Shown in pieces: positions 3,733 through 32,000 of a stretch of DNA of 32,000 nucleotides. Position 1 is the first letter of the stretch; every line of letters begins with the position of its first letter. Both the position numbers and the translations under genes were made by a program. The notes below the pieces were generated by a model, which ran no database searches, had not been told where the DNA came from, and saw only the letters and a program-made list of their open reading frames with translations. This DNA comes from Opitutales bacterium (GTDB lineage: Bacteria; Verrucomicrobiota; Verrucomicrobiia; Opitutales; UBA9783), in NCBI GenBank assembly GCA_024407725.1, contig JAKSVZ010000002.1:1-32000 (forward strand), in the 5' to 3' direction.

Positions 3733-5091
3733 TTACCTCATTTTCCCAATTCCGTACGCGTTAAATCCAATGGAACGCAGCTGTTCTAAATCCAACCCAT
3801 TACGACCGTCGAACAAGAAGGTTGGGCGTTTCATAAGGGTATACAAATGCTTATAATTCAACGAAATAAAGGGTTCGCCTTCAGTCAAGATAACGATTGC
3901 ATAGCTACCGCGCGCAGCCTGTTCCGGATCCGACACGACTTCAACCGCTTCGGAAGGATAACCTGCTAAATCCCTACGAATTACCGATTCCGGTACCCGT
4001 GGGTCATAAATCGATAAAAACGCTTGTTCTTTCAATAAATCCTGGCAAACGGTAATTGCAGGAGATTCACGCGTATCATTGGTATCCTGCTTAAACGCAA
4101 AGCCAAAAATAGCAATTTTTTTGCCCGATAAGGTATTAAACAGCTTTTCTAAAATCAAACGCGCAAAACGATGCTTTTGGTGCTCGTTCATGTCCACTAC
4201 TTGCTGCCAATACAGCGCGGATTCTTTCAACCCAAAGGATTCGCACAGATAGATCAGATTTAACAGATCCTTTTTAAAGCAAGAACCCCCAAAACCAACT
4301 GAACTCTTTAGGAATTTAGCACCAATACGGCTATCAGCACCAATTGCGCGCGAAATTTCATCGATATCCGCTCCTGAACACTCGCACAAAGCCGATAGGG
4401 CGTTGATCGAGGAAATACGTTGAGCCAAAAAGGCATTAGCCGACAGCTTGGACAATTCGCTGGACCACAGGTTTTGAGTAATAATTTTTTCTCTCGGTAC
4501 CCAATGAGCATAAATATCCACTAGAGTTTGAATCGCCTGTTTACCGCTTTCAGTTTGCTCGCCTCCAATCAAAATACGATCGGGATGGCGTAAGTCTTGC
4601 ATAGCGGTTCCTTCAGCCATAAATTCCGGATTGGACAGAATTTCAAAATGACACTGATGCGGATTGCTCGCCAAAATCGCCCGCAATTTGTTAGCGGTAC
4701 ACACTGGCAACGTGGACTTTTCAACAATAATTTTATCCGAGGTGGCTAAAGCCGCAATACGTTCAACCGCACTAACAATATACTTCAAGTCCGAAGCTTT
4801 TCCTGCTCCCTCTCCATATTGCTTGGTTGGGGTGTTAACGGACAAAAAGATAACATCGGATTCTTGGATAGCAGTATCAATATCCGTCGTAAAGGATAGG
4901 TTACGTCCACGGAGCTTTTTAACCGTTTCCGCTAACCCCGGTTCATACACAGGTAATTGATCTGAATTCCAAGCATCAATTCGCTGCTGATTAATATCAG
5001 CAACCCTTACTTGTACTTCAGGGCATTGTTCGGCAATAACAACCATCGTTGGACCACCAACATAACCCGCTCCAATACTGCAAATCTTCAT
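3733..5091 (-). CDS. ugd: UDP-glucose 6-dehydrogenase (animal/plant-like type)
   Basis: MKICSIGAGYVGGPT Rossmann start, catalytic-Cys box GFGGSCFKKD, and NPEFMAEGTA, WSSELSKL.ANAFLAQRISSIN and DTRESPA motifs. As far as I recall, it is collinear with eukaryotic UGDH. Confidence 0.9.
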   Translation of the reverse strand: MKICSIGAGYVGGPTMVVIAEQCPEVQVRVADINQQRIDAWNSDQLPVYEPGLAETVKKLRGRNLSFTTDIDTAIQESDVIFLSVNTPTKQYGEGAGKASDLKYIVSAVERIAALATSDKIIVEKSTLPVCTANKLRAILASNPHQCHFEILSNPEFMAEGTAMQDLRHPDRILIGGEQTESGKQAIQTLVDIYAHWVPREKIITQNLWSSELSKLSANAFLAQRISSINALSALCECSGADIDEISRAIGADSRIGAKFLKSSVGFGGSCFKKDLLNLIYLCESFGLKESALYWQQVVDMNEHQKHRFARLILEKLFNTLSGKKIAIFGFAFKQDTNDTRESPAITVCQDLLKEQAFLSIYDPRVPESVIRRDLAGYPSEAVEVVSDPEQAARGSYAIVILTEGEPFISLNYKHLYTLMKRPTFLFDGRNGLDLEQLRSIGFNAYGIGKMR

Positions 5092-5173: not shown

Positions 5174-6037
5174 TTAGAACGTTCTACCTACGCCCAAATA
5201 GATTTGGTCGGAATGGAAATTAGCCAGCTTCGGGATTTCGTACCCGTAGCATTTAGCCCCAAACACCTGATGCAAGCCAATATGGCGGTAACCGACTTCA
5301 AATAACGTTTCAAACTTTTCAGCGCGTACAAACAGGCTAAAGTTGTACAGCAACGAGCCGGAATGGATGTACTTACGACGTTCACTAAGCCAAGTACAAG
5401 TAGCCCAATCACCAGCAGCAACATCCCATATTTGCCAATAGTCCAGTGTCGTAAATTTGGTACAGACATAAGCACCACCAAGTCCGCCGCCGATACCAGC
5501 GGATAACCAATCTAAGATATATTGTTCCCAATAGGCATTAACTTGAGCTCCAGCAATGCGTTGGTTTTTGAGATAAAACATTTTTTCATTCCAGTTCCAT
5601 ATCGGATTTCCAGCATTATCTCGTAAATAACTATATCTTAAACCACGAAAATCGGATTGATAAGGTATGTTGACCCCATTAACTTCTTTATTGTAAGGTG
5701 CGCGTTTCTTTACGCTGACATAAGCTCCTAGAATTTCTACTTCTAAGCCTAAAGATCCAATATTGAACACATCGAATCGTCCGCCTAAAGCAACTGATAA
5801 ATTGCGGTGATTGCTGTATGGAATTTTACCCGATGTACAATCAGCGTCTCGTACTATGGCTTCATGTGTTATGCCAATGCCCTCTGGCTCTCCTCGGTTC
5901 CCTTTCTCAAACTGTCCCCAATCGTCTCCCTTCAGCTCCCCAAATCCCGAACGTACCATGACGTACAAACCATAACAGGGAGTACTCATGCCTAAGGTTA
6001 GGCTTAAAGTAAACAACGATATCCAATAGCTACGCAT
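5174..6037 (-). CDS. Outer-membrane beta-barrel protein (family unclear)
   Basis: Signal-peptide-like N-terminus MRSYWISLFTLSLTLGMSTPCYG. Gly/aromatic-rich alternating segments. C-terminus ...YLGVGRTF ends in Phe, as is typical of barrel OMPs. Confidence 0.6.
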   Translation of the reverse strand: MRSYWISLFTLSLTLGMSTPCYGLYVMVRSGFGELKGDDWGQFEKGNRGEPEGIGITHEAIVRDADCTSGKIPYSNHRNLSVALGGRFDVFNIGSLGLEVEILGAYVSVKKRAPYNKEVNGVNIPYQSDFRGLRYSYLRDNAGNPIWNWNEKMFYLKNQRIAGAQVNAYWEQYILDWLSAGIGGGLGGAYVCTKFTTLDYWQIWDVAAGDWATCTWLSERRKYIHSGSLLYNFSLFVRAEKFETLFEVGYRHIGLHQVFGAKCYGYEIPKLANFHSDQIYLGVGRTF

Positions 6038-6114: not shown

Positions 6115-6200
<86 letters not shown>

Positions 6201-6205
<5 letters not shown>

Positions 6206-6277: not shown

Positions 6278-8449
6278 TTAATGACAGGCGAGCGTTAAGC
6301 CAACTCCGATAATCGAAACAATCGACATCAGTTTCAGAAGGATGTTAAGGCTTGGTCCTGCTGTATCTTTAAAGGGATCACCAACGGTATCCCCAATAAC
6401 AGCTGCCTTATGAGCCTCCGTACCTTTGCCCCCGAACTTTCCGGTTTCGATGTATTTTTTAGCATTATCCCAAGCACCCCCAGCATTGGCCATAAAGATA
6501 GCCAAAACGAATCCGCTGGATAAGGTACCGGCCAACATACCGATTACCCCAGGAACGCCAAATAGCACTCCCACGATAAAGGGGAAGCAGACGCACAAAA
6601 GGGCAGGCACAATCATCTCTTTTTGCGCCGATTCGGTTGAAATCTTAACGCACAAGGAATAATCAGGCTTTGCTTCACCAGTTAAAATTCCTTTGATTTC
6701 CCTAAACTGGCGGCGTACTTCATCGACCATTTTGGAAGCTGCACGACCCACCGCATTCATCGATAATCCGCAGAATACAAACGCCAGCATGGAACCGATA
6801 AACATACCCATGAGCACTTTCGGATTGAGCAAATGCACATCGAAGTAATGCATCAATTGGGTAAAATCGATATCCGAAACATTGACTGAGCGACCATCAA
6901 CCATAACCGTTGTATGTCCGGCGCGCGCCAATCCCATTTTGAGCTCTTGTACATAAGAGGCAATCAGGGCTAAGGCCGTTAAGGCTGCAGAACCAATTGC
7001 AAACCCTTTTCCGGTAGCGGCCGTGGTGTTTCCAATTGCATCCAAAGCATCGGTACGGGTACGAACTTCTTCAGGCAATCCGCTCATTTCAGCGTTTCCA
7101 CCGGCGTTATCTGCAATAGGACCATACGCATCCGTTGCTAAGGTAATTCCCAAGGTGGATAGCATACCAACCGCGGCTAAACCGATTCCGTACAAACCAC
7201 GATTGAACAAAGACAGTTGGAAGCGTGAGGCAAAGCCGAAAGCCAAGGCCATTCCAATAACAACGGCAAATACCGGTAACATGGTCGATACCATTCCTTC
7301 ACCTAACCCACCAATAACCACTGGACCTGCTCCTGTATCTGCTTTTTCAGCAATACGGCGGGTTGGGCTATAATCGCTGGATGTATAGTATTCGCAACCC
7401 TTTCCGATTACGATACCGGTAATTAAACCAGCAACCAACGCTGACCATAACGCAGCGTCAAAGCCTAAAATCCGGCATAAGAAATAAGAAACAACAATCA
7501 ATCCACCTGCCGCTATATGAATTCCTTTATCCAAGGCCTTTAAAATCGATTTTCCGGATTCTGCTCCAGTAACTTTTACGTTAAAAATACCTACCAACGA
7601 TAAGAAGATACCAAAAGCTCCTACGAGTACAGGCGCTAATACTGCATTCCATTGCAGGTCAGAATTTGCAAAGGCAATTGCACCTAAAGAAGCAGCTGCA
7701 ATGATCGAGCCATAGTAAGATTCATACAAATCAGCTCCCATTCCTGCAACATCCCCTACATTATCTCCAACGTTATCTGCAATCGTCGCTGGATTTCTTG
7801 GATCATCTTCAGGAATATTGGCTTCTACTTTACCCACTAAATCAGCACCAACATCTGCTGCTTTTGTAAAAATTCCACCGCCAACACGCGCTAGCAATGC
7901 ATTTAAGGAAGCTCCAACCCCGAAGGTAACCATCGTGGTTGTGATCAACGTGGCACGTTCGCTTGATGGAATATTTCCCGTAAACTGATTCAAAACAAAG
8001 AACCAGAATGAATAATCGAGAATCGCCAAGCCTACGACCACCAATCCCATAACGGAACCGCTACGGAAAGCAATCATCAATCCTTTGTTCAATGAATGAC
8101 GAGCGGCTTCTGCCGTACGAGCTGAAGCTGCAGTTGCTGTTTTCATTCCTAAGAATCCAGCAAGACCCGAAAAGAATCCACTCGATAAAAATGCAAACGG
8201 TACCCATTGGTTTTGCAATTGGAACCCATAGGCTAAAATCGCTAAAAATATAGCTAAGCAACCAAATAAGCATGCTACAATCTTATACTGTTGCTTTAAG
8301 TAGGCCATGGCTCCTTCGCGCACATACCCTGCAATGGTACGCATCGTTTCGTTACCTTCATCTGCTTGCCTCATTTGCCCATAAAAATAGGCGGCAAATC
8401 CTAGGGCTGTTAAACCCGCTAATGGCGCTAGCCAGAACAATCCACTCAT
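6278..8449 (-). CDS. hppA: Membrane-bound ion-translocating pyrophosphatase, K+-dependent-type signature
   Basis: 723-aa polytopic protein with the hallmark motifs [29 protein letters not shown] and [11 protein letters not shown]. The [10 protein letters not shown] box has Ala, not Lys, which is the residue reported to mark K+-dependent enzymes. Confidence 0.93.
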
Positions 8450-16865: not shown

Positions 16866-17004
16866 GCTTCTAAAAAAGCAAAACACAAAAAAATTTCGCT
16901 TTTTTAGCGACAGTAAGCCTAAGGGTTATATACTGTTTTTGTCCTTCTAATTTAGCATGAAATGAATTTAAAAGTAAGGATGCTTGGGATCCTTTACTTT
17001 TGAG

Positions 17005-17033
17005 TTGACATTAAGATGAAAAACAGATTAAAT
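17005..17033 (+). promoter_or_regulatory. Candidate promoter TTGACA-N17-TTAAAT
   Basis: Perfect -35, a 17-nt spacer and a 4/6 -10. It lies directly after a strong hairpin (16970-17001) in a gene-free spacer. Confidence 0.35.
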
Positions 17034-17545
17034 TTATCTTAATTTGTATACCATATGCAGTGGACAAAATTATTTTATCCCAACAAGATTTTTTGTCAAG
17101 CTCTTTATAAGAGGGGGATGCTTTGGGGGGACTTTCCCTATTTGTTTTTTATCTGCTAAACGGATCCATTGTACATCACCGAGAAAACACTGATGAAATA
17201 CTCTTTGTGCCTCTGTTTTTTATCGACATGGATTAACAATTACCGTATGATACGGTATTGCCTTTTCTGATTCTGCTTTTCCAAGAAAAAGTTTATTTCA
17301 AAAAAACCATCCTGTCGAGCCTTTTTAAGATAAATCCTAAAAGGATCCTATGGGTTGATTGGGATTTTCCGTCTTTATAAATGAAGGTTAAAACAAGCAA
17401 ACTTACTGTTTTCGCTTGATAGCCCTGTAAAAAAGCAACCGCTCCCAAAGAGGGCATGGGGCATTATAGGTTTATCGTTTAAAAAACCAATTTTTTTAGA
17501 AAAGGCTCATAGTAAAAAGAGAACCTATGAACTTTCGCTTTTTTA

Positions 17546-17574
17546 TTGACATAGGCACATAGGTTGAATAAAAT
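17546..17574 (+). promoter_or_regulatory. Candidate promoter TTGACA-N17-TAAAAT, bracketed by a CATAGGT/ACCTATG inverted repeat
   Basis: Perfect -35, a 17-nt spacer and a 5/6 -10. The inverted-repeat arms at 17558-17564 and 17576-17582 flank the -10. There is no protein gene downstream. Confidence 0.5.
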
Positions 17575-17580
17575 TACCTA

Positions 17581-17815
17581 TGTAAGGAAGCAATCCTCCA
17601 ATTAATGGAATTTTTGTCCCTCAAGCATTCATAGGCTTACAGCAGGTGATAATTGGTAAATTTATCATGTTCTTCTTGGTCTTTTTTAGGAGATTCTCAT
17701 AAAGATTTTAACCAATCCTTATCGAACAGTCAAGGACAAAAGCGGAGCAAGAACCCTAACGAACATTAAAAAATATCGCCTAGAGGGAAACCTTTAGGCG
17801 ATATTCATAGGTTTT
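17581..17815 (+). ncRNA. Candidate small RNA (unit X) running from the 17546 promoter to the shared hairpin at 17773-17804; ends uncertain
   Basis: A promoter with no ORF of 60 aa or more behind it. Contains the core ATAGGCTTAC-agcag-GTGATAAT, also found at 29689-29706 and in degenerate form at 29305-29322. Both ends are inferred, not demonstrated. Confidence 0.3.
17768..17804 (-). terminator. Rho-independent terminator of ald (possibly bidirectional)
   Basis: 14-bp stem ATATCGCCTAGAGG / CCTTTAGGCGATAT (one G:U pair) with loop GAAA. On the minus strand a U-run follows (the A-run at 17768-17772 on the plus strand). It lies 23 nt after the ald stop. Confidence 0.7.
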
Positions 17816-17827
17816 AATAGCTTATGC

Positions 17828-21642: not shown

Positions 21643-24526
21643 ATCATTTTTGTTTGCTTTTGCTGAATGCTTATGCCTACCGTTGATGGCTCAAACGGTT
21701 GCGTCTGCGAACCCATCAGAGGTTCCGAATCTCCCAAAAATTCATGAAAAAACATCGGCAGAACCCATAAGCCAACAACTATCGTTAGCACCCACCACCT
21801 CTTGGGAACAGCCCCTTGTTGCGGATTCCGCCATTCGTTCCGGAACCTTAGCCAACGGAATGCATTATTATTTATACCCCATGCAGCACCCATCCAATTC
21901 TATTAGTCTCCAGTTGCTCGTACAGGCTGGTGCGCTTATGGAAACAGATGCGGAGGATGGATTAGCTCATTTTATTGAACACATGGTGTTTTGCGGAAGC
22001 CGCCATTTTGAGCCTAAAACCCTCGTACATTTCTTTCAGAAAAACGGAATGAATCTAGGCCCCGATAGCAACGCGTATACCGGTTGGTTTCATACGTGCT
22101 ATCTTTTAGATTTGCCCAATAACGAACCAGCTAATTTACAAAAGGCGTTGACCGTATTAAACGACTTCATGTTTGAAGCCTCATTTCTAAAATCCGAAAT
22201 TGAACGCGAACGAGAGGTCATTTTATCGGAAAAACGCTTACGAGACTCCATAGCCTATCGCGCATCGGTATCGTTTTTAAAGCAGTTTTATCCCGAACAT
22301 CAATTAGGTAAACGCTTCGTCATAGGTACGGAAGACGTAATTAAAGCGGTTACCGCGGAAAACTTTTTTAACTTTTACAAGCAATGGTACACGCCCAACC
22401 GCATGGCGTTGATTATCGCTGGAAACATCGATGCTGATAAGACCTTAACCTTGCTACAAAACACCTTTAAGGCAAGCCGTCCGGAAACCCCTACGCCTGA
22501 TTACGGGACCATCAAACCATTCAAGAAAACCCCCGCGGTATCGGTATATAGCGATAAAGAATTACCCGAAGCTACTTTGTTATTAGCAGCGCGACGTCCG
22601 TTTGCTAATCCGCACCCATCCACATTGAACGATTTTAAGTATTTCGTCACTTGGTCCTTGATGAGCATTATGCTCAATCAACGCTTAAATGAATTGGTCA
22701 ACACAACCGATCTGATTCGCGCAATTTTTGAGCACGAAAACATGGCAGGATGCATCGAAAGCACCAGCTTTTCCTTTTCATGCGCGCACGACCATCTTCT
22801 TAAGATCGTGCCTTTGATCGAACAAGCCTACCGTTCCGTTAACTTGTTTGGCTTTTCCGAACAAGAATTAGCTGCCGCTAAGGTTATTTTGGAAAACAGC
22901 TTAAAAACCGCCTGTATTTCCGAAAAGAACGAAACTCCTAAGCAGCGCGCCGATCGGATGTGCGGGGTTCTAAGCATTAACCAACCGATTATATCCGCTC
23001 CTCAACGGCTGACCCATTTTCAACAAATTCAATCGAGTATTACCCCCCAAACCTGTAAGGAATTGTGGAATTCCTTTTGGAAGAATGGCTATTATTTGTT
23101 CGCCCAAGGTTCGTTTGATGAAAAACTAAACGCTGCCGCCTTAGAAGCTGCGTTCGCCCAATCTCAACAGCAAGCATTACAACAACCGAATCTTTCGCGT
23201 CCAACAGAGTTAAAATCCGTCTTCCCATCCGGTCATCAGGTAAAAATCACTCACTACGTCTATCATCCCGATTTGCAATTGGAAACTTTTACCTTCGACA
23301 ACAATGTACGGGTAAACTTACGACATACAACCTTTGAAAAAGAAAAAATCGATATTCACGTAGCCATGGGTTGTGGATTGATGGAGCACAAGAATCATCC
23401 ATTACCTGGATTGCATTACTTCTTAAACGGAACCTTTATTGAAGGCGGTATTCAGCAATATTCCAAAGTAGAATTGGATCGCCTATTTGAAGGGAAACCG
23501 GTCTCCATTAATTTTTCGGTTAATTCCGATTGCTATGCTTTGTCCGGCCATACCAATCAACGTTATTTGTCGCAAGAATTGCAATTGATTGGCGCTTATT
23601 TGCTACAACCCGGTTATCGCCCTGAGGGAGAAAAGAACTTCCGTAAACACCTACTGGGATTGTACGAAAGCTTTAAGCACGATCCCTTTGGCGTAATGAA
23701 AACCCAAGGCAATGCGTTTATGACCAACAACGATATGCGTATCGCTTATCCCGAGTTATCCGTCATGCAACAACGCACCACAGAAGAAGCACGCGCCTTG
23801 TTGGAGCCTGTCCTACAAAAACAGTATATGGAGCTGACCATCGTGGGGGATTTCGATCGCAACGTGTTACTGGATCAACTATTTAAAACCTTCGGTCAAT
23901 TGCCTGCGCGTGAAGCAACCAAGCACATACCCAATGATTACGAAAATACCTTTTGGCCCACCAAGCGTTCGGTTAAAGTACTAACTTTTCAATCAACGGT
24001 GGATGAAAAAGCAATGGCGGTGCTTTTGTTCCCTTGTAAGGGCGATCAAAATCCCATCTATGCCCGTAAATTAAGTCTTATTGCTTCGATTATTAGCCAT
24101 CGTTTATACGATGAAATTCGAGAAGATTTGGGCGATTGCTATACCGCCAATGCGTGGCTAAGTCAAAACGAGGTCTTTAACCGCGGAGCTATTTTTTCCT
24201 ACTCAATCGTCACCCCTCAAAAATTAAGCACAGTAGCCGACCGCATGCTAAAGATTGCTGACGATATTGCGCATCATGGCGCCACACAAGATGAATTGAA
24301 TCGAGCCATTAAACCCATGGTAGGTACCCTTGAAAAAGCACGGGTCACCAATGGCTTTTGGATGAATTGGATGAGCGGTATTCAAGCCAATCCCCATCGT
24401 TTAACATGGGATTTGGCCAATAGCGCTACTTATACCCAAGTAACCCTTGAGGAAATCAACAAATATGCACGGGATTATCTCAACCGCGGATGGGCCATCT
24501 CCCTGCAGATACAACCTGAAAAGTAA
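21632..24526 (+). CDS. M16 zinc peptidase, secreted/periplasmic double-domain form
   Basis: Signal-like MINKSFLFAFAECLCLPLMAQT. HFIEHMVFCGS zinc motif. The start overlaps the upstream M16 gene by 11 nt. Confidence 0.85.
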   Translation: MINKSFLFAFAECLCLPLMAQTVASANPSEVPNLPKIHEKTSAEPISQQLSLAPTTSWEQPLVADSAIRSGTLANGMHYYLYPMQHPSNSISLQLLVQAGALMETDAEDGLAHFIEHMVFCGSRHFEPKTLVHFFQKNGMNLGPDSNAYTGWFHTCYLLDLPNNEPANLQKALTVLNDFMFEASFLKSEIEREREVILSEKRLRDSIAYRASVSFLKQFYPEHQLGKRFVIGTEDVIKAVTAENFFNFYKQWYTPNRMALIIAGNIDADKTLTLLQNTFKASRPETPTPDYGTIKPFKKTPAVSVYSDKELPEATLLLAARRPFANPHPSTLNDFKYFVTWSLMSIMLNQRLNELVNTTDLIRAIFEHENMAGCIESTSFSFSCAHDHLLKIVPLIEQAYRSVNLFGFSEQELAAAKVILENSLKTACISEKNETPKQRADRMCGVLSINQPIISAPQRLTHFQQIQSSITPQTCKELWNSFWKNGYYLFAQGSFDEKLNAAALEAAFAQSQQQALQQPNLSRPTELKSVFPSGHQVKITHYVYHPDLQLETFTFDNNVRVNLRHTTFEKEKIDIHVAMGCGLMEHKNHPLPGLHYFLNGTFIEGGIQQYSKVELDRLFEGKPVSINFSVNSDCYALSGHTNQRYLSQELQLIGAYLLQPGYRPEGEKNFRKHLLGLYESFKHDPFGVMKTQGNAFMTNNDMRIAYPELSVMQQRTTEEARALLEPVLQKQYMELTIVGDFDRNVLLDQLFKTFGQLPAREATKHIPNDYENTFWPTKRSVKVLTFQSTVDEKAMAVLLFPCKGDQNPIYARKLSLIASIISHRLYDEIREDLGDCYTANAWLSQNEVFNRGAIFSYSIVTPQKLSTVADRMLKIADDIAHHGATQDELNRAIKPMVGTLEKARVTNGFWMNWMSGIQANPHRLTWDLANSATYTQVTLEEINKYARDYLNRGWAISLQIQPEK

Positions 24527-24535
24527 AGTTTAGCC

Positions 24536-24859
24536 ATGAATTCCATCACCATACTTACTTCCGAAAATTTTGATACCTTTATTCAACAACCCTTTGCCTT
24601 GGTCGATTTTTTCGCACCTTGGTGTGGGCCTTGCAATGCCTTAGCTCCCATTTTAGAGGATATCGCTACGACGCACAACATCCCTGTCGGAAAAGCATCG
24701 GTTGATGAAGCAGCTAATCAGGAACTCGCAAGTTCCTATCATGTACGGAGTATTCCCACTTTACTCTTCTTCCAAAACGGTAAGCTGGTAGAACAACACG
24801 TTGGTGCGCTTTCCAAACAGGAACTATTGGAAAAAATCAAAACCTATGTCACCCTTTGA
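24536..24859 (+). CDS. trxA: Thioredoxin
   Basis: 107 aa with the WCGPC active site and an IPTLLFF motif. Confidence 0.9.
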   Translation: MNSITILTSENFDTFIQQPFALVDFFAPWCGPCNALAPILEDIATTHNIPVGKASVDEAANQELASSYHVRSIPTLLFFQNGKLVEQHVGALSKQELLEKIKTYVTL

Positions 24860-25451
24860 TTATTTGTCCGATTTGGGACAGCGTTACCCCCAATTGCATC
24901 CCCATATACACGCCATTCAAGAAGCAGTGCAGTTGATCGTCACAACCTTTCAGCAAGGAGGTAAAATGCTCACGGCAGGTAACGGCGGAAGCGCTTCCGA
25001 CGCGGAGCATATTTCTGGAGAATTATTAAAATCCTTCAAAAATCCTCAACATCCCAAGGATTTACCATCGAATTTGGCGATGCATTTACAATGCGCGTTG
25101 CCCGTTATCCCTTTAGGAAGCCTACAGGCTGCTTATACTGCATTTTCTAACGACTGCGACCCTCAATGGGCGTTTGCGCAGTTGGTCTATGCATTAGGAC
25201 GCAAAGGAGATACCTTGTTAGCCATCAGCACCTCAGGACGTTCAAAAAACATCTGTTACGCAGCTGAAGTTGCCAAAGCCAAACACATGACCGTGATAGG
25301 TTTGTCGGGCAATACCGGCGGAGATTTAAAAGCGCTTTGTGATGTATGCATTTGCGTTCCCGAAACGGAAACCTACAAAATCCAAGAATTCCACTTAGCC
25401 ATCTATCATACGCTGTGCCTCATCATCGAAGAGCGTATGCATACGATGTAA
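24846..25451 (+). CDS. gmhA: SIS-domain protein, phosphoheptose isomerase (GmhA/DiaA-like)
   Basis: GNGGSASDAEHISGELL and AISTSGRSKN SIS motifs. I prefer the in-frame ATG at 24846 (MSPFDY...) to the track start at 24801, which lies inside trxA. Confidence 0.7.
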   Translation: MSPFDYLSDLGQRYPQLHPHIHAIQEAVQLIVTTFQQGGKMLTAGNGGSASDAEHISGELLKSFKNPQHPKDLPSNLAMHLQCALPVIPLGSLQAAYTAFSNDCDPQWAFAQLVYALGRKGDTLLAISTSGRSKNICYAAEVAKAKHMTVIGLSGNTGGDLKALCDVCICVPETETYKIQEFHLAIYHTLCLIIEERMHTM

Positions 25452-25456
25452 ATCAT

Positions 25457-25786
25457 TTAACCCGCACGCGATGCGTCCCCTGAATGCGGATTATTATGAT
25501 GCATCGGAGTAGAAGACGAATGGTGTTTGGGTCCAAAGCTACGTTTCGGGGGATTTGAATTCGCTAGGGTTGTTCTTAAACGATAGCAAATACGGGCTTT
25601 GGTTAAATCATAGGGGCTCATTTCCATTAGCACCCGATCCCCAATACCAATTTTAATAAAATTTTTTCTTAATTTTCCGGAAATATGAGCTAACAATTCT
25701 TGTTGATTATCCAAGCGCACTCTAAAAAGCGTTTTAGGGAGTACTTTAACAATGGTTCCTTCAACTTCAATTAACTCTTCCATCAA
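25457..25786 (-). CDS. infA: Translation initiation factor IF-1 with a 37-aa C-terminal extension
   Basis: Residues 1-72 match the IF-1 S1/OB fold ([19 protein letters not shown]...[38 protein letters not shown]). A His/Pro/Ser-rich tail follows. Confidence 0.88.
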
Positions 25787-25855
25787 TAATTTATTACTAT
25801 ACCCTTTTTACAGAATCGGTCAAGTGTAAAGGGTAACCCCATTCATCACTTTAAC

Positions 25856-26545
25856 TTGCTCCCTGTCTCCAAACCTGCTTTGATTTTTCTTATGGCAAAG
25901 CATAAAAAATGGCTAGGAATCGTTCTGTTGCTTGGCAGCTGTATTTGCTTCTTGTTGCCCCAGAGAACTACATGGGATTGTGCTGGATACACCTTATGCC
26001 CGCATTATTTTAAAACCACGCAAGCAGCTAAGGATTTTGTACAAAGCGCCGATTTTAACGAAAACAAACACTATCGGTATTATTGGTCTTGGACGCTTGT
26101 TTTTTCGGACAACCAAGGCAGTAGATCATCCGATTCTACTGGTTCCCAACCCATTTTATGGGCGTTTTTAAGAATACCGCATTATGGTTGGTTCAAAACC
26201 AAGCCCGACAAATGGGTACGCTTGGTATTAGCACAACAAATACAAGCTCAAATACCCCATCGAACGGTAGAAGTTCAAGGCAATGCAATCCTCGTTGATC
26301 ATCAAAGGATTGGAGTGTGTATCGCACAAGAAGAGCGTAATGGAGCATTTTGGGATTACGTAATCGAATTAGCGCTCAATACCCCTAAGGACGCTCTAGC
26401 TGGCACCTCATTTAATACCTCGTTAGCATTAGAATCCCAACAGGTCTATAACAGCGAAACCTTCTTAAAAGCCTTTTGGGTTGCTTTTCTGAAAAATCGA
26501 GACCCAAGATCGTTCGATCTTAAAACTCCTTTGCCAGAGTGGTAG
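25856..26545 (+). CDS. Hypothetical membrane-anchored or lipoprotein-like protein
   Basis: ORF from a TTG, with an alternative ATG at 25892 (MAKHKKW...). Hydrophobic N-terminus with a lipobox-like LLGSC. No domain recognised. Confidence 0.45.
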   Translation: MLPVSKPALIFLMAKHKKWLGIVLLLGSCICFLLPQRTTWDCAGYTLCPHYFKTTQAAKDFVQSADFNENKHYRYYWSWTLVFSDNQGSRSSDSTGSQPILWAFLRIPHYGWFKTKPDKWVRLVLAQQIQAQIPHRTVEVQGNAILVDHQRIGVCIAQEERNGAFWDYVIELALNTPKDALAGTSFNTSLALESQQVYNSETFLKAFWVAFLKNRDPRSFDLKTPLPEW

Positions 26546-26649
26546 CGATTCCTCGGTTGCAGATATAAAAAGCATAGGCAGCTAGGACATAGTTGCAAGA
26601 TGCCTTGAAAATAGTTGCTTAAAAAGGGCGAATCCTCTAGTGTTGCACT

Positions 26650-27198
26650 ATGGATTACATTATTCGCACCCTACCCTCAACGGCCAACCTAAGGAAATCG
26701 TTAGGAATCTGTGTTTTCGGTAGCTTATTGCTCGCAATTTGCTCTCAAATCCAAATCCCTTTGTGGCCTGTACCCATGACCTTACAAACGGCTGCAGTTT
26801 TATTTTTGGCTTATCGCTTTGGCAGTACCCACGCCGTTCGCGCAGTATTAGCTTGGGTTCTGGTCGGAAGCTTTAATCTGCCTGTGTTTTCGCATTTAAC
26901 AGGCATAGGGGCGCTCAGCGGACCATCCGCTGGATATATCTATGGAATGGTGCTGCAAGCGTATAGTGCCCGTTGGTTTTTTAAATCGGGGTTAAGCATC
27001 CCACGCCTCATTGCTGGAGGCTATCTATGCGTAGCGCTTACTTTTATCGTTGGATATGCTTGGCTTAGCGGATTTGTTGGAACAAACATGGCTTTTACAA
27101 CCGGAGTTGCTCCGTTTTTACTGAGCGAAAGTCTCAAAATTATAGTGACTTCATGGTTTTGCAACCAGAACTCATCCCGCTGCGTCCACACCATTTAG
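26650..27198 (+). CDS. bioY: Biotin transporter S-component BioY
   Basis: 182-aa, 6-TM-like protein with a PVPMTLQTAAVLFLAYRFG segment typical of BioY. Confidence 0.78.
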   Translation: MDYIIRTLPSTANLRKSLGICVFGSLLLAICSQIQIPLWPVPMTLQTAAVLFLAYRFGSTHAVRAVLAWVLVGSFNLPVFSHLTGIGALSGPSAGYIYGMVLQAYSARWFFKSGLSIPRLIAGGYLCVALTFIVGYAWLSGFVGTNMAFTTGVAPFLLSESLKIIVTSWFCNQNSSRCVHTI

Positions 27199-27566
27199 TG
27201 TGCTTGCAGTATTTTGTCGGCAATGGATACAGCACAGGGTTTACCGCCAACACCACCCGCGTGCTTACTTACCTTAAACAACATCCAACCCTTGCGTGTA
27301 TTCAAATCGTGCAAGGAGCTGATACTCTTTGTCAATCCTGCCCGAATATGCATACGCAATGTGAAACTGCTCAGCAACATGACCAAGGTTATTTACAAGC
27401 GCTTCATTTAACCATCGGACAACAGCTATCGTTCCAAGAAGCCATTGAACGCTTCCAACGGTACGTTAACGATACGGTATTTCACACAATTTGCGGCACC
27501 TGTCCGTGGTATGATCTATGTTCTTCTTTACGTCAAAAGCGAACGCTTGATATACTCGATACGTAA
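27153..27566 (+). CDS. DUF1284-family Cys-rich protein
   Basis: LRPHHLVCLQYFVGNGYS signature plus CQSCP and CGTCPWYDLC pairs. Overlaps the end of bioY by 46 nt if the ATG at 27153 is used. Confidence 0.65.
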   Translation: MVLQPELIPLRPHHLVCLQYFVGNGYSTGFTANTTRVLTYLKQHPTLACIQIVQGADTLCQSCPNMHTQCETAQQHDQGYLQALHLTIGQQLSFQEAIERFQRYVNDTVFHTICGTCPWYDLCSSLRQKRTLDILDT

Positions 27567-27577
27567 GTAGTTACGCT

Positions 27578-28495
27578 ATGAATGCATCTCATTTTTTGTT
27601 GGTTGACGGTACCAATTTGGCGTTTCGCAGCTTCTATGGGATACAATACCTATCCAACAGCCAACAGCTGCCGGTGAATGCCATTTACGGCTTTTTCAAT
27701 TCACTTCTGACTTTAGCCCAAACGCATTCGTTTGAACGCGCGATTATTTGCTTTGATTGCGGTCATTCAAGTGCCAGAACAGAAATCTTGGATGCCTATA
27801 AGAAAAACCGCACCCCAACACCGGATGATTTCAAAAAACAACTGCCTTACATTAAGGAACTTATTCCGTTGTTTGGATGGGTGTGTTGTGAGCAAATGGG
27901 GATTGAAGCTGATGATTTAATCGCAACCTGGGCTCAATGGGCCACCCAAAATCAACAATCGGTAGCCATTGTCAGCGCGGATAAAGATCTCATGCAGTGC
28001 GTTACGAATACGGTGCATCAAATCGTTCCAAATTCCAACGGTTGGTATTCCTTAGATCCTGCGGGAGTGGTAGAAAAGGTAGGCGTTTATCCCCATCAAA
28101 TCGTTGATTATTTAGCGCTTATTGGGGATTCTGCCGATAATTACCCAGGATTGCTGGGAGTGGGGCCTAAAACAGCTGCAAAATGGCTCAACGCTTATCA
28201 ATCAATCGAGGGTATTTACACTCATTTATCCGCCATAAAACCCGAACGTTTTCAGTCGGTTTTATCCCAATCAAAAACCTTAATCGAACGAAATCAATCC
28301 TTGGCGCGCCTTTCCTGTTCCCTTGATTGGATTGACCCTAAATTCAACCCTCAACCTCAGCCTCAAGCGTTAGATGCTAAGTTAACGGAGCTTAATTTGA
28401 ACAAATTAAGGGGTAAATGCCGTCAGTTTTTCCAACAGCATCCATCGATAATCCCTGATTCTAAGCCCTTGCAACAAGGGGAGTTTGCCTTTTGA
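27578..28495 (+). CDS. Stand-alone 5'-3' exonuclease / flap endonuclease (Pol I N-terminal-domain type)
   Basis: LLVDGTNLAFRSFYG, EADDLIAT, SADKDLMQ and the H3TH segment GDSADNYPGLLGVGPKTAAKWL. 305 aa with no polymerase domain. Confidence 0.85.
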   Translation: MNASHFLLVDGTNLAFRSFYGIQYLSNSQQLPVNAIYGFFNSLLTLAQTHSFERAIICFDCGHSSARTEILDAYKKNRTPTPDDFKKQLPYIKELIPLFGWVCCEQMGIEADDLIATWAQWATQNQQSVAIVSADKDLMQCVTNTVHQIVPNSNGWYSLDPAGVVEKVGVYPHQIVDYLALIGDSADNYPGLLGVGPKTAAKWLNAYQSIEGIYTHLSAIKPERFQSVLSQSKTLIERNQSLARLSCSLDWIDPKFNPQPQPQALDAKLTELNLNKLRGKCRQFFQQHPSIIPDSKPLQQGEFAF

Positions 28496-28508
28496 GCACC
28501 CGAAAACT

Positions 28509-29165
28509 ATGAACTCCACAGACTTGCCCAATCCCAATACCGTCTTTCCTATTAAAAACCTAACTACGTTAACCTATGTAAAGCCGACCCTTAAAAATCC
28601 GAATATTAGCGTTGGGGATTTTACTTACTTCGGAGCTAGCGATTTCGAAAGCCATGTGACCCACCATTATGATTTCATCGGGGATAAGCTGATCATTGGT
28701 AAATTTTGCCAAATTGCCAAGGGGGTCAATTTCGTGATGAACGGCGCCAACCATCAAATGAATACCGTTTCTACCTATCCTTTTTACATTTTTGCCGGCT
28801 GGGGTCAAAAAGCGCCTGATAAGGCCGATATGCCCCTCAAAGGCGACACAGTGGTCGGTAACGATGTTTGGATTGGACAGGACGCAACCATTTTACCTGG
28901 AGTTCATATTGGGGATGGCGCTATTATTGGTTTAAACAGTGTCGTAGGGTCTCATGTTCCTCCTTATACTATTGTGGCGGGAAATCCTGCAAAACCTATC
29001 AGAAAACGCTTTGACGACGAATTAATTGCGCTCATGCTGCGCTTGAAATGGTGGGACAAAAGCATTGAGGAAATTCGTCGACTAATCCCCACGCTAACCA
29101 ATTGCCATTTGGATGAAGTAAAAGCTGCTATCAAACAGCTACTAGCCTCCGATTGCTCAAGATAA
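28509..29165 (+). CDS. vat: Xenobiotic acyltransferase (XAT) family, Vat-type streptogramin A acetyltransferase-like
   Basis: HHYDFIGDKLIIGKFCQIA, MNGANHQMN..TYPF, hexapeptide run GNDVWIGQDATILPGVHIGDGAIIGLNSVV, and GNPAKPIRKRF..LKWWD. I prefer the ATG at 28509 to the TTG at 28485. Confidence 0.82.
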   Translation: MNSTDLPNPNTVFPIKNLTTLTYVKPTLKNPNISVGDFTYFGASDFESHVTHHYDFIGDKLIIGKFCQIAKGVNFVMNGANHQMNTVSTYPFYIFAGWGQKAPDKADMPLKGDTVVGNDVWIGQDATILPGVHIGDGAIIGLNSVVGSHVPPYTIVAGNPAKPIRKRFDDELIALMLRLKWWDKSIEEIRRLIPTLTNCHLDEVKAAIKQLLASDCSR

Positions 29166-29170
29166 AAGCC

Positions 29171-29199
29171 TTGACACTCTAACCGTTTAGAGTTACCAT
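29171..29199 (+). promoter_or_regulatory. Candidate promoter TTGACA-N17-TACCAT (unit Y)
   Basis: Perfect -35, a 17-nt spacer and a 4/6 -10. The spacer contains the small hairpin CTCTAA-ccgt-TTAGAG just after the vat stop. Confidence 0.4.
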
Positions 29200-29207
29200 T
29201 ATTTTTG

Positions 29208-29318
29208 ATGGGTGAAACTGGTTGCGGGAAGACATTTTTGATCGGCCATATGGCTGTCCTTCAAGAAACTCGGCTGTTTTTTAGGAACCAGATGGCGTCA
29301 CTTGATAGCTTCACGTAA
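29208..29318 (+). pseudogene. 36-codon ORF with an N-terminal Walker-A motif: relic of a P-loop ATPase gene, or a leaderless micro-ORF
   Basis: Encodes MGETGCGKTFLIGHMAVLQETRLFFRNQMASLDSFT followed by TAA TAA TAG. GETGCGKT fits GxxGxGK[ST]. The ATG lies about 9 nt after the -10 box. Confidence 0.4.
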
Positions 29319-29351
29319 TAATAGACTATCAACACTTACGATCATCTCGTG
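29241..29351 (+). repeat. Paralogous unit Y core (related to 29652-29735 and, more distantly, 17621-17668)
   Basis: ATCGGC..CTTCAA..ACT...GGCGTCACTTGATAGCTTCACGTAATAATAGACTATCAACACTTACGATCATCTC aligns to unit Z. By eye, 39 of 54 positions match in the ungapped 3' block. Confidence 0.7.
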
Positions 29352-29588
29352 CACCCAAATAGTAAATGAAGGACGTTAAATAAAATATAGTTCCATCATT
29401 CATAGGTTGGCATGTTCTTTCAAGAAATATTGTACAACCTATCCCCTCCTAGAGTCAAGCCAAAAGCCAAAACTATATAATTTAAATACTAAACACTGCT
29501 TGTTAAAATGTCTTTAAAGAAATGAAAAAAGCAGCAATAAACAGCACAAAATTCCCCGAATCTGTACTGCTTTGATTCGATAAAAATC

Positions 29589-29617
29589 TTGACACAACAA
29601 AACTTTATTCCTATGAT
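29589..29617 (+). promoter_or_regulatory. Candidate promoter TTGACA-N17-TATGAT (unit Z)
   Basis: Perfect -35, a 17-nt spacer and a 5/6 -10. No ORF of 60 aa or more downstream. Confidence 0.5.
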
Positions 29618-29651
29618 TTAAGTAGGATGTAGTAAAAGTTTTTTATTACTC

Positions 29652-29735
29652 ATCGGCTGTTCTTCAATAGACTAGAGGGCGTTACCTGATAGGCTTACGT
29701 GATAATAAGCTGCTAACACTCACAATCATCTCCTC
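29652..29735 (+). repeat. Paralogous unit Z core
   Basis: ATCGGCTGTTCTTCAATAGACTAGAGGGCGTTACCTGATAGGCTTACGTGATAATAAGCTGCTAACACTCACAATCATCTC. See unit Y. Confidence 0.7.
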
Positions 29736-29899
29736 TGGCGCTCTGCAACTAAAAGCAGGATCACTAGAAGCAAGAAACGTTAGTGTTGATTCATCCATTT
29801 CGCTTCTACCAAACAGAATTTAACTCATTATTGCCTGAGCGTCAATAAAAAAGATAAGGATGTTCCTTTCCTTTTTTATCTCTTAAAATGCTTTTATCC

Positions 29900-29928
29900 T
29901 TGACCCTTGGCCAAATAAAGAATATAAT
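29900..29928 (+). promoter_or_regulatory. Candidate promoter TTGACC-N17-TATAAT pointing into the 3' end of pnp (antisense)
   Basis: 5/6 -35, a 17-nt spacer and a perfect -10. The only thing downstream is about 230 nt of spacer and then the antisense strand of pnp. Confidence 0.5.
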
Positions 29929-30160
29929 TGTTCTTAAGCGAACAAATGGCTCCAATATTCAAAATCTTTTGCACGCAAACCAAATTTTTTGATTTATCGC
30001 ATCTGCCAGCTACCATAGCAAAACATTAAAATACACGCTACAACTTAACGTTTTGACGTTAACTTTAACTTGAGCATTTTCTGGCGAAGCATGCTTGCTT
30101 ATTTTAAGCGCTTTCGCCATCGAATGTCAATTACAACGTAAAGGCTTTTGCCAATCCTTA

Positions 30161-32000
30161 TTATTTACTTGGCTGTTGTTGCATAGCTGCCTTACGGCTT
30201 AAGCGGACACGACCTTTTTCATCAATCCCAACACAGGTAACTACCATCGTATCACCAAGAGCGCATACATCGCTTGGATGATTGACTCGGCAATCAGATA
30301 ATTCGGATACATGCACCAATCCTTCCTGTCCGGGCAAGCATTCCACGAACACACCAAAATCCTTAATGGATTTAACGATGGCTTGGTAGGTTTTCCCAAC
30401 TTCGATTTTTTGATCGAGCGCTTGGATTTGCTCAACTACCTTCTTGAGCATTTCCTCATCGCAGGCATAGATTGAAACTTTTCCAGAATTATCTTCGCAG
30501 ATATCGATTTGGCAGCCGGTTGATTCCGTTAAACGTTTAATGTTCTTACCGCCAGGACCGATTAAAGCACCGATCTTGTCTGGAGAAATCATAACGGTTG
30601 CAATGCGTGGAGCAAAGGGGCTGGTAGACGTACGCGGTTGCGCCAAGGCGCCTTTCATAACTTCCAAAATACGCGCTCTTGCTTGAGTATTTTGATGAAT
30701 CGCTTCCTCCATGATTTCTAGAGGCAATCCAGCAATCTTCAAATCCAATTGAAATCCGGTAATTCCCTTGTCGGTTCCACAGATCTTAAAATCCATATCG
30801 CCGTAATGGTCTTCATCACCGATGATATCCGTTAACAGCTTATAACGCGCGATAGAGCCCGTTTGATCCATTTCGGTTACCAACCCAATGGATATACCCG
30901 ATACAGGGGCTAAAATGGGCACTCCTGCGTCCATCAACGCTAAGGTACCACCGCAAACGGATGCCATGGAGGTTGAACCGTTTGAGCTCATGATATCCGA
31001 AACCACACGAATGGCATAAGGGAAATCAGTTTCCGATGGAATAACGGGCAACAACGAACGTTCTGCTAAGGCACCATGTCCTACTTCACGGCGGCTAAGG
31101 AATCCAAAGCGTCCTGTTTCTCCTGTTGAATAAGGCGGGAAGTTGTAATGAAGGATAAACGATTTCGATTGTGCTCCTCCGGTTAATCCATCCAAATCCT
31201 GAGCATCGCTATTAGCGCCCAAGGTTACGCTCACCAAGGCTTGGGTTTGACCCCGTTCGAACACAGCAGACCCATGCACGCGCTTCGGCAAAACATCAAC
31301 CGCACAGGATAATTTACGGATTTCATCCAACGAACGGCCATCTAAGCGCTGATCTTGGTCTAAAACTGCCTTACGGCACACGTCCTCTTGCAAAGCTTCA
31401 AAAGCAATCGATACGGCTTCTTTTGCCTTTTCTTCATCGTCGAACCATTGCTCATCAATCGCCATTTTGAACGCGGACTGTTTGAGCAAGCGTACCCCTT
31501 CATCAGCCGCTGAACGATCGGCATTGAACCAAGTGTTGCGCAAGGGTTCCGTAAAACTGGCTCTGCACCATTCCATGGCTTCTGTTGTAGCTACATGAGG
31601 AACGTACGCACTTTTTACACGTCCTACTTGGCGCGCCAACGCTTCTTGGGCGTCTAAAATTGGCTGAATGGCCTGTTGAGCCTTATGTAAAGCCTCAATA
31701 AAACGTGCTTCCGGCAATTGATCCGCGCATCCTTCAATCATCAAGGCACGGTCTCGGGTACCCACATAGATTAAATCCAAATCCGAATCGAATTGCTGAT
31801 TGTTGGTTGGGTTAATAACAAACTCGCCATTGACCTGAGCAATCCGCACGCAACCAATGGGTCCGCCCCAAGGGATATCAGAACACATCAACGCCGCAGA
31901 AGCTCCATTGACCATCAAAATATCCGATTCATTCTTCAAATCGGTCGATAAGAGCAAACCAATAATTTGCACTTCATTTAAAAAGTCACTTGGAAATAAA
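30161..32000 (-). CDS. pnp: Polynucleotide phosphorylase, N-terminus beyond the window edge
   Basis: RNase PH core motifs (FPPYSTGE, GHGALAERSL), KH (PDKIGALIGPGGKNIKRL) and S1 (GKTYQAIVKSIKDFGVFVECLPGQEGLVHVSEL). The frame stays open past the track start at 31972 to base 32000 (..LFPSDFLNEVQIIG..). Confidence 0.93.
   Translation of the reverse strand, partial: LFPSDFLNEVQIIGLLLSTDLKNESDILMVNGASAALMCSDIPWGGPIGCVRIAQVNGEFVINPTNNQQFDSDLDLIYVGTRDRALMIEGCADQLPEARFIEALHKAQQAIQPILDAQEALARQVGRVKSAYVPHVATTEAMEWCRASFTEPLRNTWFNADRSAADEGVRLLKQSAFKMAIDEQWFDDEEKAKEAVSIAFEALQEDVCRKAVLDQDQRLDGRSLDEIRKLSCAVDVLPKRVHGSAVFERGQTQALVSVTLGANSDAQDLDGLTGGAQSKSFILHYNFPPYSTGETGRFGFLSRREVGHGALAERSLLPVIPSETDFPYAIRVVSDIMSSNGSTSMASVCGGTLALMDAGVPILAPVSGISIGLVTEMDQTGSIARYKLLTDIIGDEDHYGDMDFKICGTDKGITGFQLDLKIAGLPLEIMEEAIHQNTQARARILEVMKGALAQPRTSTSPFAPRIATVMISPDKIGALIGPGGKNIKRLTESTGCQIDICEDNSGKVSIYACDEEMLKKVVEQIQALDQKIEVGKTYQAIVKSIKDFGVFVECLPGQEGLVHVSELSDCRVNHPSDVCALGDTMVVTCVGIDEKGRVRLSRKAAMQQQPSK

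Follow-up and report, generated by a model that had tools for sequence, protein, structure and literature searches.

Why should the gap between two converging genes, a place where neither gene needs a promoter, be crowded with promoter-like sites and related sequence units? The question is raised by a 995-bp spacer (positions 29166-30160) in a 32,000-nucleotide (nt) stretch of contig JAKSVZ010000002.1 from an Opitutales bacterium, referred to here as the window. The spacer separates vat (28509-29165, plus strand), which encodes a Vat-type hexapeptide acetyltransferase, from pnp, whose open reading frame (ORF) on the minus strand ends at 30161. ORF calls agree with an earlier note on this DNA about both of these ends and about the lack of any ORF of 60 amino acids (aa) or more on either strand, the largest within the spacer being 40 aa. 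The window derives from a low-G+C organism, and its pnp product is closest to proteins from metagenome-assembled genomes labeled Opitutae/Puniceicoccales (Verrucomicrobiota). The spacer itself is AT-rich, with a G+C content of 33 to 39% versus 43 to 50% in its flanks. The earlier note took the spacer for a pair of duplicated small-RNA (sRNA) genes or duplicated 5' gene relics with live promoters. Our leading explanation, held with about evenly balanced confidence, is that the spacer is a lineage-specific expansion at a hotspot of near-neutral turnover beside an acquired, decaying vat gene, and that the overlapping noncoding RNAs expected from its promoters are unconstrained.

The two related units (Table 1) are true paralogues with promoters, as the earlier note had supposed. 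Their cores, 29287-29348 and 29671-29732, are identical at 47 of 62 positions (76%), and both terminate in ATCATCTC. The pair is recovered by blastn within the window (E = 9e-9), and its local alignment score of 61 lies far above that of shuffled sequences (19.8 +/- 2.4). The repeated region is broader than was first described, taking in the promoters (GATAAAAGCCTTGACAC, GATAAAAATCTTGACAC; GATAAAAnnCTTGACAC) and a piece of vat: positions 29112-29139, which code for Vat residues DEVKAAIKQ, are similar to 29521-29545 (score of 26 versus 15.0 +/- 2.3, P = 0.001). Because the similarity reaches both the promoters and the coding end of vat, a block running from inside vat through promoter P1 and the unit was copied in tandem. 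Start-to-start offsets between the copies are 384 to 418 nt, a period of roughly 385 to 420 bp. By this comparison, the units are halves of one segmental tandem duplication and not two members of a gene family, and the vat fragment heading copy 2 is, from its residual similarity, one that has decayed since the duplication. Unit 1 additionally holds an internal 19-nt subduplication (GGCTGTCCTTCAAGAAAC / GGCTGTTTTTTAGGAAC).

Table 1. Features of the vat-pnp spacer and its borders (window coordinates; minus-strand promoters are given in their own reading direction)
Feature	Position	Strand	Remarks
vat 3' end, start of copy 1	29112-29165	+	Last ~55 nt of coding sequence; similar to 29521-29545
P1	29171-29199	+	TTGACA-N17-TACCAT, 10/12; counterpart of the relatives' single plus-strand promoter
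Unit 1	29241-29351 (core 29287-29348)	+	More diverged paralogue
Minus-strand site (Pm')	29458 to 29429	-	TTGACT-N18-TACAAT, 10/12; faces P1
Decayed vat 3' copy, start of copy 2	29521-29578	+	Similarity P = 0.001; from repeat search
P2	29589-29617	+	TTGACA-N17-TATGAT, 11/12; duplicate of P1 without the palindrome
Unit 2	29652-29735 (core 29671-29732)	+	Paralogue collinear with and closest to the relatives' single unit
Pm	29845 to 29817	-	TTGACG-N17-TAAATT, 9/12; in block shared by all 14 related loci, plus-strand text AACTCATTATTGCCTGAGCGTCAATAAAAAA
A/T-flanked hairpin	29845-29879		Position equals that of the relatives' pnp terminator; candidate bidirectional terminator
Strain-specific segment	29880-30160		~280 nt, from hairpin to pnp stop; carries P3 (+) and P4 (-)
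P3	29900-29928	+	TTGACC-N17-TATAAT; within strain-specific segment
P4	30130 to 30101	-	TTGACA-N18-TAAAAT, 11/12; just past pnp stop

The duplication is known from the window and from locus L001, which is identical to it over a shared 4.6 kb including the entire spacer and may share the same reads. Searches with blastn and nhmmer, which covered the 32-kb window and ~1.4 Mb of loci, found no further copy of the unit. A pattern scan for the unit in a collection of species-representative genomes gave 0 matches, as did blastn of the spacer against plasmids and phages and a search for the pattern of the 3' block in viral contigs. A metagenome scan with the exonuclease yielded one short close relative.

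The abundance of promoter-like sites exceeds what composition would produce. The spacer holds 12 sigma70-like sites, about four times the 3.1 +/- 1.7 expected from dinucleotide-preserving shuffles of the same sequence. Five of these match the consensus at 10 or more of 12 positions, versus 0.44 +/- 0.66 in shuffles (maximum of 3 in 1,000 shuffles, P < 0.001), and three match at 11 or more, versus 0.02 expected. The earlier note's description of a spacer packed with near-consensus promoters is thus borne out, and its three plus-strand sites (at 29171, 29589, and 29900) were recovered with the hexamers and 17-nt spacers that it gave. It did not include three minus-strand sites, at 30130, 29458, and 29845, which are about as good. 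Since plus- and minus-strand sites pair up, the six best sites form three convergent pairs whose members lie 230 to 290 bp apart. Judged by their match to consensus, these near-consensus promoters are probably active.

P1 carries a further feature, the near-palindrome CTCTAACC/GTTTAGAG at 29177-29192, between its -35 and -10 hexamers. The arms of this palindrome (TCTAA/TTAGA) are unchanged in three lineages, as is the P1 -35 hexamer, and the 4-nt center differs (CCGT, CCAT, TTAT, or GCGT). The operator-like palindrome is missing from the duplicated promoter, P2. The site at 29458 (Pm') was considered as a duplicate of Pm, which was suggested by MAFFT alone, and was rejected since the similarity is not significant.

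Comparison with relatives indicates what preceded the duplication. We compared the window with 12 further loci whose pnp proteins belong to its cluster (at least 90% identity) and are 96 to 97% identical to that of the window. All are metagenome assemblies, and grouping by identity at 4-fold degenerate sites of pnp gives three independent lineages in total. Loci L002, L089, L091, L092, L123, and L125 form a tight group, 88 to 93% identical to one another at these sites and 77 to 80% identical to the window; the lineage of L087, L088, and L128 is ~69% identical to both the window and the tight group. In all same-genus loci, the two genes are convergent, and the spacer measures 274 to 421 nt and contains one module. 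The module consists, in order, of P1, a variable region, all or part of the unit, the Pm block, and the pnp terminator. P1 reads CTTGACAnTCTAA-N3-TTTAG and Pm reads TTGACA/G-N17-TAnnnT in the relatives, and TTGACAnTCTAA...TTTAG is retained in L002, L087, L089, L091, and L092. The Pm block is kept in every same-genus locus, and P1 is kept in all but L123-L127, where it is deleted. Both promoters match the consensus at 11 of 12 positions in L087, as does Pm in L002. Unit 2 is identical to the unit of L091 at 56 of 76 positions and to those of L002 and L089 at 33 of 41 (each P < 0.004), and the similarity of unit 1 to the relatives' units is weak (P = 0.03 to 0.8). Among the promoters, it is P1 of copy 1 that most resembles the promoter of the relatives.

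The modules of the relatives have been rearranged repeatedly. L091 has kept the 3' block of the unit and has a C8 tract (~5380-5420) between the -35 and -10 hexamers of P1, which brings that promoter's spacer to 22 nt. The 3' block is lacking in L002, L089, and L092; in L002, an AT-rich minisatellite consisting of about six copies of TTATTAATTAATTT (4790-4870, minus strand as displayed) stands in place of the 3' half of the unit. In L123-L127, a single deletion has taken out P1 and the unit together with the 3' half of vat, leaving the first ~270 nt of the gene (L123, 5137-5505). In L087, L088, and L128, vat is gone except for its last ~50 nt (L087, 7440-7544). On the evidence of these loci, vat has been lost twice independently in the genus. 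The adjoining DNA at 24002-28510, comprising several genes and intergenic regions, aligns to both L087 and L089 as one high-scoring segment pair. These alignments make the spacer a hotspot of structural change beside ~4.5 kb of flanking DNA that has kept its collinearity.

Two other features were seen in L087, which belongs to the lineage without vat. A perfect 7-1-7 palindrome, TGGTTCACTGAACCA, lies at 7395-7415, right after the P1 start site. At ~7465-7505, the sequence AACCTGC...GCAGGTT within the vat 3' remnant makes a hairpin; T6 comes next on the strand read from Pm, and a Pm transcript of ~285 nt could end here.

The gene adjoining the hotspot is probably not native to it. The vat product of the window has 67 to 74% aa identity to those of genes in Vampirovibrio, Elusimicrobia, Fibrobacter, Bacteroidales, Clostridia, and others, with the closest homologues coming largely from animal-gut and rumen metagenome-assembled genomes. 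In more distant Opitutae, genes for an LptD_N-domain protein, an ABC-transporter ATPase, and RNase III lie downstream of pnp, and vat is not found there. Its similarity to genes of many gut phyla, together with its absence beside pnp in distant relatives, makes vat look horizontally acquired. Import of the spacer along with vat was considered and rejected, as nothing similar to the spacer was found flanking 80 vat loci of other phyla.

An acquired neighbor also brings to mind the promoter islands of Panyukov and Ozoline, AT-rich DNA that traps RNA polymerase or nucleoid proteins and so silences or insulates a foreign gene. In E. coli, 75 of 78 such islands adjoin foreign genes (PMC3661553), and the spacer resembles them in adjoining a gene of the horizontally transferred type, in its reduced G+C content, and in its fourfold excess of sites. 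Islands are defined, however, by a density of 8 or more PlatProm start points per 100 bp, sustained in every scan window across 300 bp or more (PMC3661553), and the ~1.2 sites per 100 bp counted here, by a consensus scan and not by PlatProm, suggest that the spacer falls short of that density; its sites are also few, discrete, and near consensus. Moreover, a second promoter-rich spacer in the window, at 16866-17827, has no obvious foreign neighbor, although no dedicated test was made. A promoter island is therefore quite unlikely to be what the spacer represents.

If the units were functional RNA genes, their sequences should be held more tightly than neutral sites. Across lineages, identity of the unit is 74 to 80%, against 79% at 4-fold sites of pnp, which is about neutral. 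The spacers of L087 and L088 differ by only 0.7%, versus 3.3% at pnp 4-fold sites (Fisher P = 0.02 against pooled 4-fold sites of pnp and the exonuclease gene), a result that might be read as purifying selection. That reading was rejected because control intergenic regions of the same two loci, with 2 differences in 588 nt, are as conserved as the spacer, and the low divergence is thus no evidence of special constraint.

Searches for RNA structure and family gave a similar picture. Rfam 15, applied to the spacers of the window and of L087 at both the gathering threshold and E <= 10, returned matches that were far below gathering, with none over the unit cores; the sole gathering-level match in the whole window is a tRNA at 6119-6205 (minus strand). 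The Rfam/Infernal scan that the earlier note had proposed therefore assigns the units to no RNA family. The window units and predicted transcripts, taken on both strands and at several extents, gave folding z scores of -1.7 to +0.6, none of them significant. A consensus fold by RNAalifold of the four full-length homologues reached -0.56 kcal/mol with 9 pairs, a comparison of low power at n = 4.

These results bear most directly on the proposal that the units are two paralogous, fast-evolving genes for trans-acting sRNAs of ~150 to 650 nt, in which a C/U-rich seed, CUAACACUCACAAUCAUCUCCUCUGG, would pair with purine-rich ribosome-binding sites. Strong promoters stand ahead of both units, although the claim that each has a promoter of its own holds at the level of sequence (P1 at 10 of 12 positions, P2 at 11 of 12). 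The C/U-rich block is the part common to unit 1, unit 2, L091, and L087; three of the four homologues place it on the 5' side of a long, irregular hairpin, a common hairpin and T-run follow downstream, and the L087 transcript folds with a z score of -2.3. Against this, L002, L089, and L092 have lost the block and L123-L127 the entire unit, all being loci only ~10% from L091 at neutral sites; lineages resemble one another in the unit no more closely than at neutral sites, and no consensus structure emerges. The fold z scores of the window units are insignificant, no Rfam family matched them, and the terminator scan gave no canonical terminator. A pair of sRNA genes is accordingly unlikely in our judgment. 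The earlier note was right about a duplication that includes promoters, but a family of sRNA genes does not follow from it, since the copies arose in one segmental event and show no Rfam membership, significant fold, or conservation that would mark such genes.

Evidence for a protein product is likewise slight. The minus strand of both units has a 15-aa mini-ORF with the same end point (MIVSVSSLLSRKPIR and MIVSVDSLLLREAIK), and L091 has MRGSFVLVTLRSGNSIR; in L087, the mini-ORF has a CUG start and a different tail, and in L002, L089, and L092 it is deleted. By hand count, the substitutions between the two copies number 5, 4, and 4 at codon positions 3, 1, and 2, with no periodicity. A scan of five spacers for ORFs and hydropathy found no small hydrophobic ORF (about 18 to 60 aa) conserved between copies and relatives; each locus has its own set of small ORFs. 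Those with the best hydrophobicity, at 29514-29600 and 29503-29595 (minus strand), are specific to the window and have non-ATG starts and no ribosome-binding site. A conserved small protein was rejected as a candidate: neither the minus-strand ORFs MNDGTIFYLTSF and MDESTLTFLASS, whose N termini are similar, nor the 15-aa mini-ORF persists in relatives, and none of them has a codon-position bias.

Such observations leave little room for a type I toxin-antitoxin-like locus, in which a small toxic peptide encoded on one strand would be countered by an antisense antitoxin RNA from the convergent promoter. Tandem intergenic modules set between strong convergent promoters fit that arrangement, as does a purine-rich stretch followed by the AUG of the 15-aa ORF on the minus strand of both units. 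But neither a conserved hydrophobic peptide of membrane length nor any counterpart of the best hydrophobic ORFs occurs in the relatives, and the mini-ORF falls short of membrane length, is broken or deleted in them, and lacks codon periodicity. We regard this possibility as extremely unlikely.

The gap might alternatively hold the decayed remnant of a protein gene, or of a second vat copy, with the units as its 5' relics. Frame +1 after P1 reads PLFLMGETGCGKTFLIGHMA, which is Walker-A-like, and a six-frame Pfam search matched AAA_5 there (E = 0.026); one antisense-frame tblastn match to vat was obtained at E = 0.002, and the region adjoins a gene that is itself decaying. The AAA_5 match, at 15 bits, is below the cutoff of 22, occurs in one of six frames, and rests on a motif (GETGCGKT) absent from the same place in every relative; a P-loop ATPase relic was rejected on these grounds. 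A second vat copy was rejected as well, as the antisense match was reproduced neither by tblastn of the window's own Vat against the window spacer, which gave no match, nor by a Vat profile hidden Markov model run on all frames of six spacers (no match; best E of ~1). With 109 queries to correct for, the match at E = 0.002 is not significant. No protein-level homology was found that would make the spacer a collinear remnant of a protein gene, an outcome for which the earlier note had allowed, and its duplicated 5' gene relics are left without support. We consider a gene remnant decidedly improbable.

Downstream of unit 2, the weak hairpin and T-run described in the earlier note are present at 29845-29879. 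The arms, 29845-29860 and 29864-29879, are 88% complementary, contain three G-C pairs, and are flanked by A6 and T6. The hairpin, the sole candidate for a Rho-independent terminator of the units, folds as a closed stem and is too poor in G+C for the terminator scan, which scored 0 in the spacer. A second terminator-like hairpin, on the minus strand at 29140 to 29123, lies inside the 3' end of vat.

Beyond the hairpin at 29845-29879, the ~280-nt segment that parts the pnp stop from its presumed terminator is absent from the loci of all relatives. That this segment (29881-30160) is a diverged third copy was considered and rejected, there being no significant similarity to either duplicated copy; an 11-nt match, TTGACATTCG, alone links P4 with the Pm of L087. 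The 255-nt minus-strand RNA predicted to run from P4 to the hairpin folds with a z score of -2.5, making it a possible 3' untranslated region (3'UTR)-type sRNA. Imperfect direct repeats, AATGCTTTTATCCTT (29886-29900) and AAGGCTTTTGCCAATCCTT (30141-30159), border the ~280-nt insertion.

Insertion and repetition could also be the work of a mobile or invertible element, either a miniature inverted-repeat transposable element or an inverton, whose inverted repeats (TTGACAYTC ... GARTGTCAA) mimic -35 boxes. Invertible promoters are abundant in gut bacteria. The 9-mer TTGACATTC is inverted at both module ends in L002, L089, and L092; L087, L091, and the window have it with a single mismatch, and it is found at P4 too. 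Yet all six TTGAC boxes of the window are followed 17 to 18 nt on by TAnnnT, as in real promoters, no target-site duplication was seen, and the searched sequence contains no second copy. All lineages carry the interior in one orientation, and searches of plasmid, phage, and viral sequences gave no match. An element of this kind is very improbable here.

The expansion by tandem duplication and insertion proceeded from a single ancestral module of ~300 to 400 bp, consisting of the vat 3' end, P1, a variable segment with the unit, Pm, a putative bidirectional terminator, and the pnp stop. In the lineage of the window, a segment with a period of ~385 to 420 bp, starting inside the 3' end of vat and extending past P1 to include the unit, was duplicated in tandem, and ~280 nt of unrelated DNA with its own convergent promoter pair now parts the terminator hairpin from the pnp stop. 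P1 and P2 are predicted to produce plus-strand noncoding transcripts running to the hairpin at 29845-29879, where the transcripts of pnp and P4 would likely end also. Pm, P4, and possibly the site at 29458 would give rise to minus-strand transcripts overlapping those of the plus strand, and the outcome would be cis-antisense pairs and transcriptional interference. As the sequence presumed to be transcribed shows no detectable constraint, the RNAs would most likely be incidental products or, at the most, regulators that are young and dispensable.

Several observations weigh against so neutral an account. The duplication explains the promoter enrichment (5 versus 0.44) only in part, and the three convergent pairs, with their spacing of 230 to 290 bp, look organized and not random. 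The fixed P1 -35 hexamer and TCTAA-N4-TTAGA arms around a changing center hint at a protein-binding operator. Identity between the units still stands at 76%, yet no similarity is left in the ~170 nt that follow each of them, which could reflect selection or gene conversion acting on the units. The single module of L087 folds better than shuffles on both strands (z of about -2.3), and with only three independent lineages, the tests for constraint are low powered.

Some of these points would fit a different function, in which the module is a fast-evolving cis-antisense cassette at 3'-3' junctions that acts through convergent transcription and not through RNA sequence. Such a cassette would comprise two facing sigma70 promoters, ~200 to 290 bp of freely changing DNA, and sometimes a palindromic operator, and its roles might include insulating convergent genes from one another, terminating read-through across their junction, or adjusting the 3' ends of vat and pnp. 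Its instances would be the three pairs in the vat-pnp spacer and the similar promoter cluster at 16866-17827. We hold this to be a doubtful, rather improbable alternative.

The spacer at 16866-17827 is a second gene-free gap of ~962 nt between convergent genes, and its sequence does not resemble that of the vat-pnp spacer. Of the 16 near-consensus sites in the window, 5 lie here (+17005, -17099, +17223, +17546, and -17733), along with 7 terminator-like hairpins, compared with 0.7 expected. The promoter at 17005-17034 is followed by a hairpin at 17124-17140 and a T-run, which together make a candidate sRNA of ~110 nt.

Read as a product of turnover, the vat-pnp spacer offers a worked example of how a promoter-packed gap can arise by segmental tandem duplication and indels beside an acquired resistance gene that is being lost. 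It also cautions against taking paralogous, promoter-bearing units for families of sRNA genes. To our knowledge, almost no regulatory RNAs have been described for Verrucomicrobiota, a poorly studied gut phylum. If the promoters are active and their convergent layout is selected, sequence-independent antisense transcription could itself be a functional element at convergent junctions.

Known systems share individual features with this locus. The LDR (ldr/rdl) and SIB (ibs/sib) loci of E. coli are tandem intergenic repeats that encode type I toxin-antitoxin pairs. Like the vat-pnp spacer, they consist of tandem intergenic modules of several hundred base pairs with strong promoters on both strands; unlike them, the spacer has no conserved small hydrophobic ORF, and its modules are dispensable, being partly deleted in sister strains. 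Its repeat includes a piece of vat and is therefore, in contrast to LDR and SIB, a plain segmental duplication. sRNAs of the DapZ/MicL type are derived from 3'UTRs, with a promoter of their own and a terminator in common with the mRNA. P4 is similarly placed, just past the pnp stop, and its well-folding 255-nt RNA would end at the pnp hairpin, but the segment carrying P4 is confined to this strain and the RNA is a predicted one. E. coli promoter islands (PMC3661553, PMC7054387) are likewise AT-rich and indel-rich in their evolution, with an excess of promoter-like sites and a foreign neighbor, a feature that vat supplies here; the spacer differs in its much lower density of sites, in their discrete, near-consensus character, and in its Opitutae host. 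Convergent-promoter cis-antisense pairs differ in having a target gene between the promoters, whereas the overlap in this spacer is noncoding and unconstrained and its transcripts are predicted. The layout is nonetheless like theirs, with near-consensus promoters facing each other across ~200 to 290 bp, terminator-like hairpins on the outside, and predicted transcripts that overlap almost wholly.

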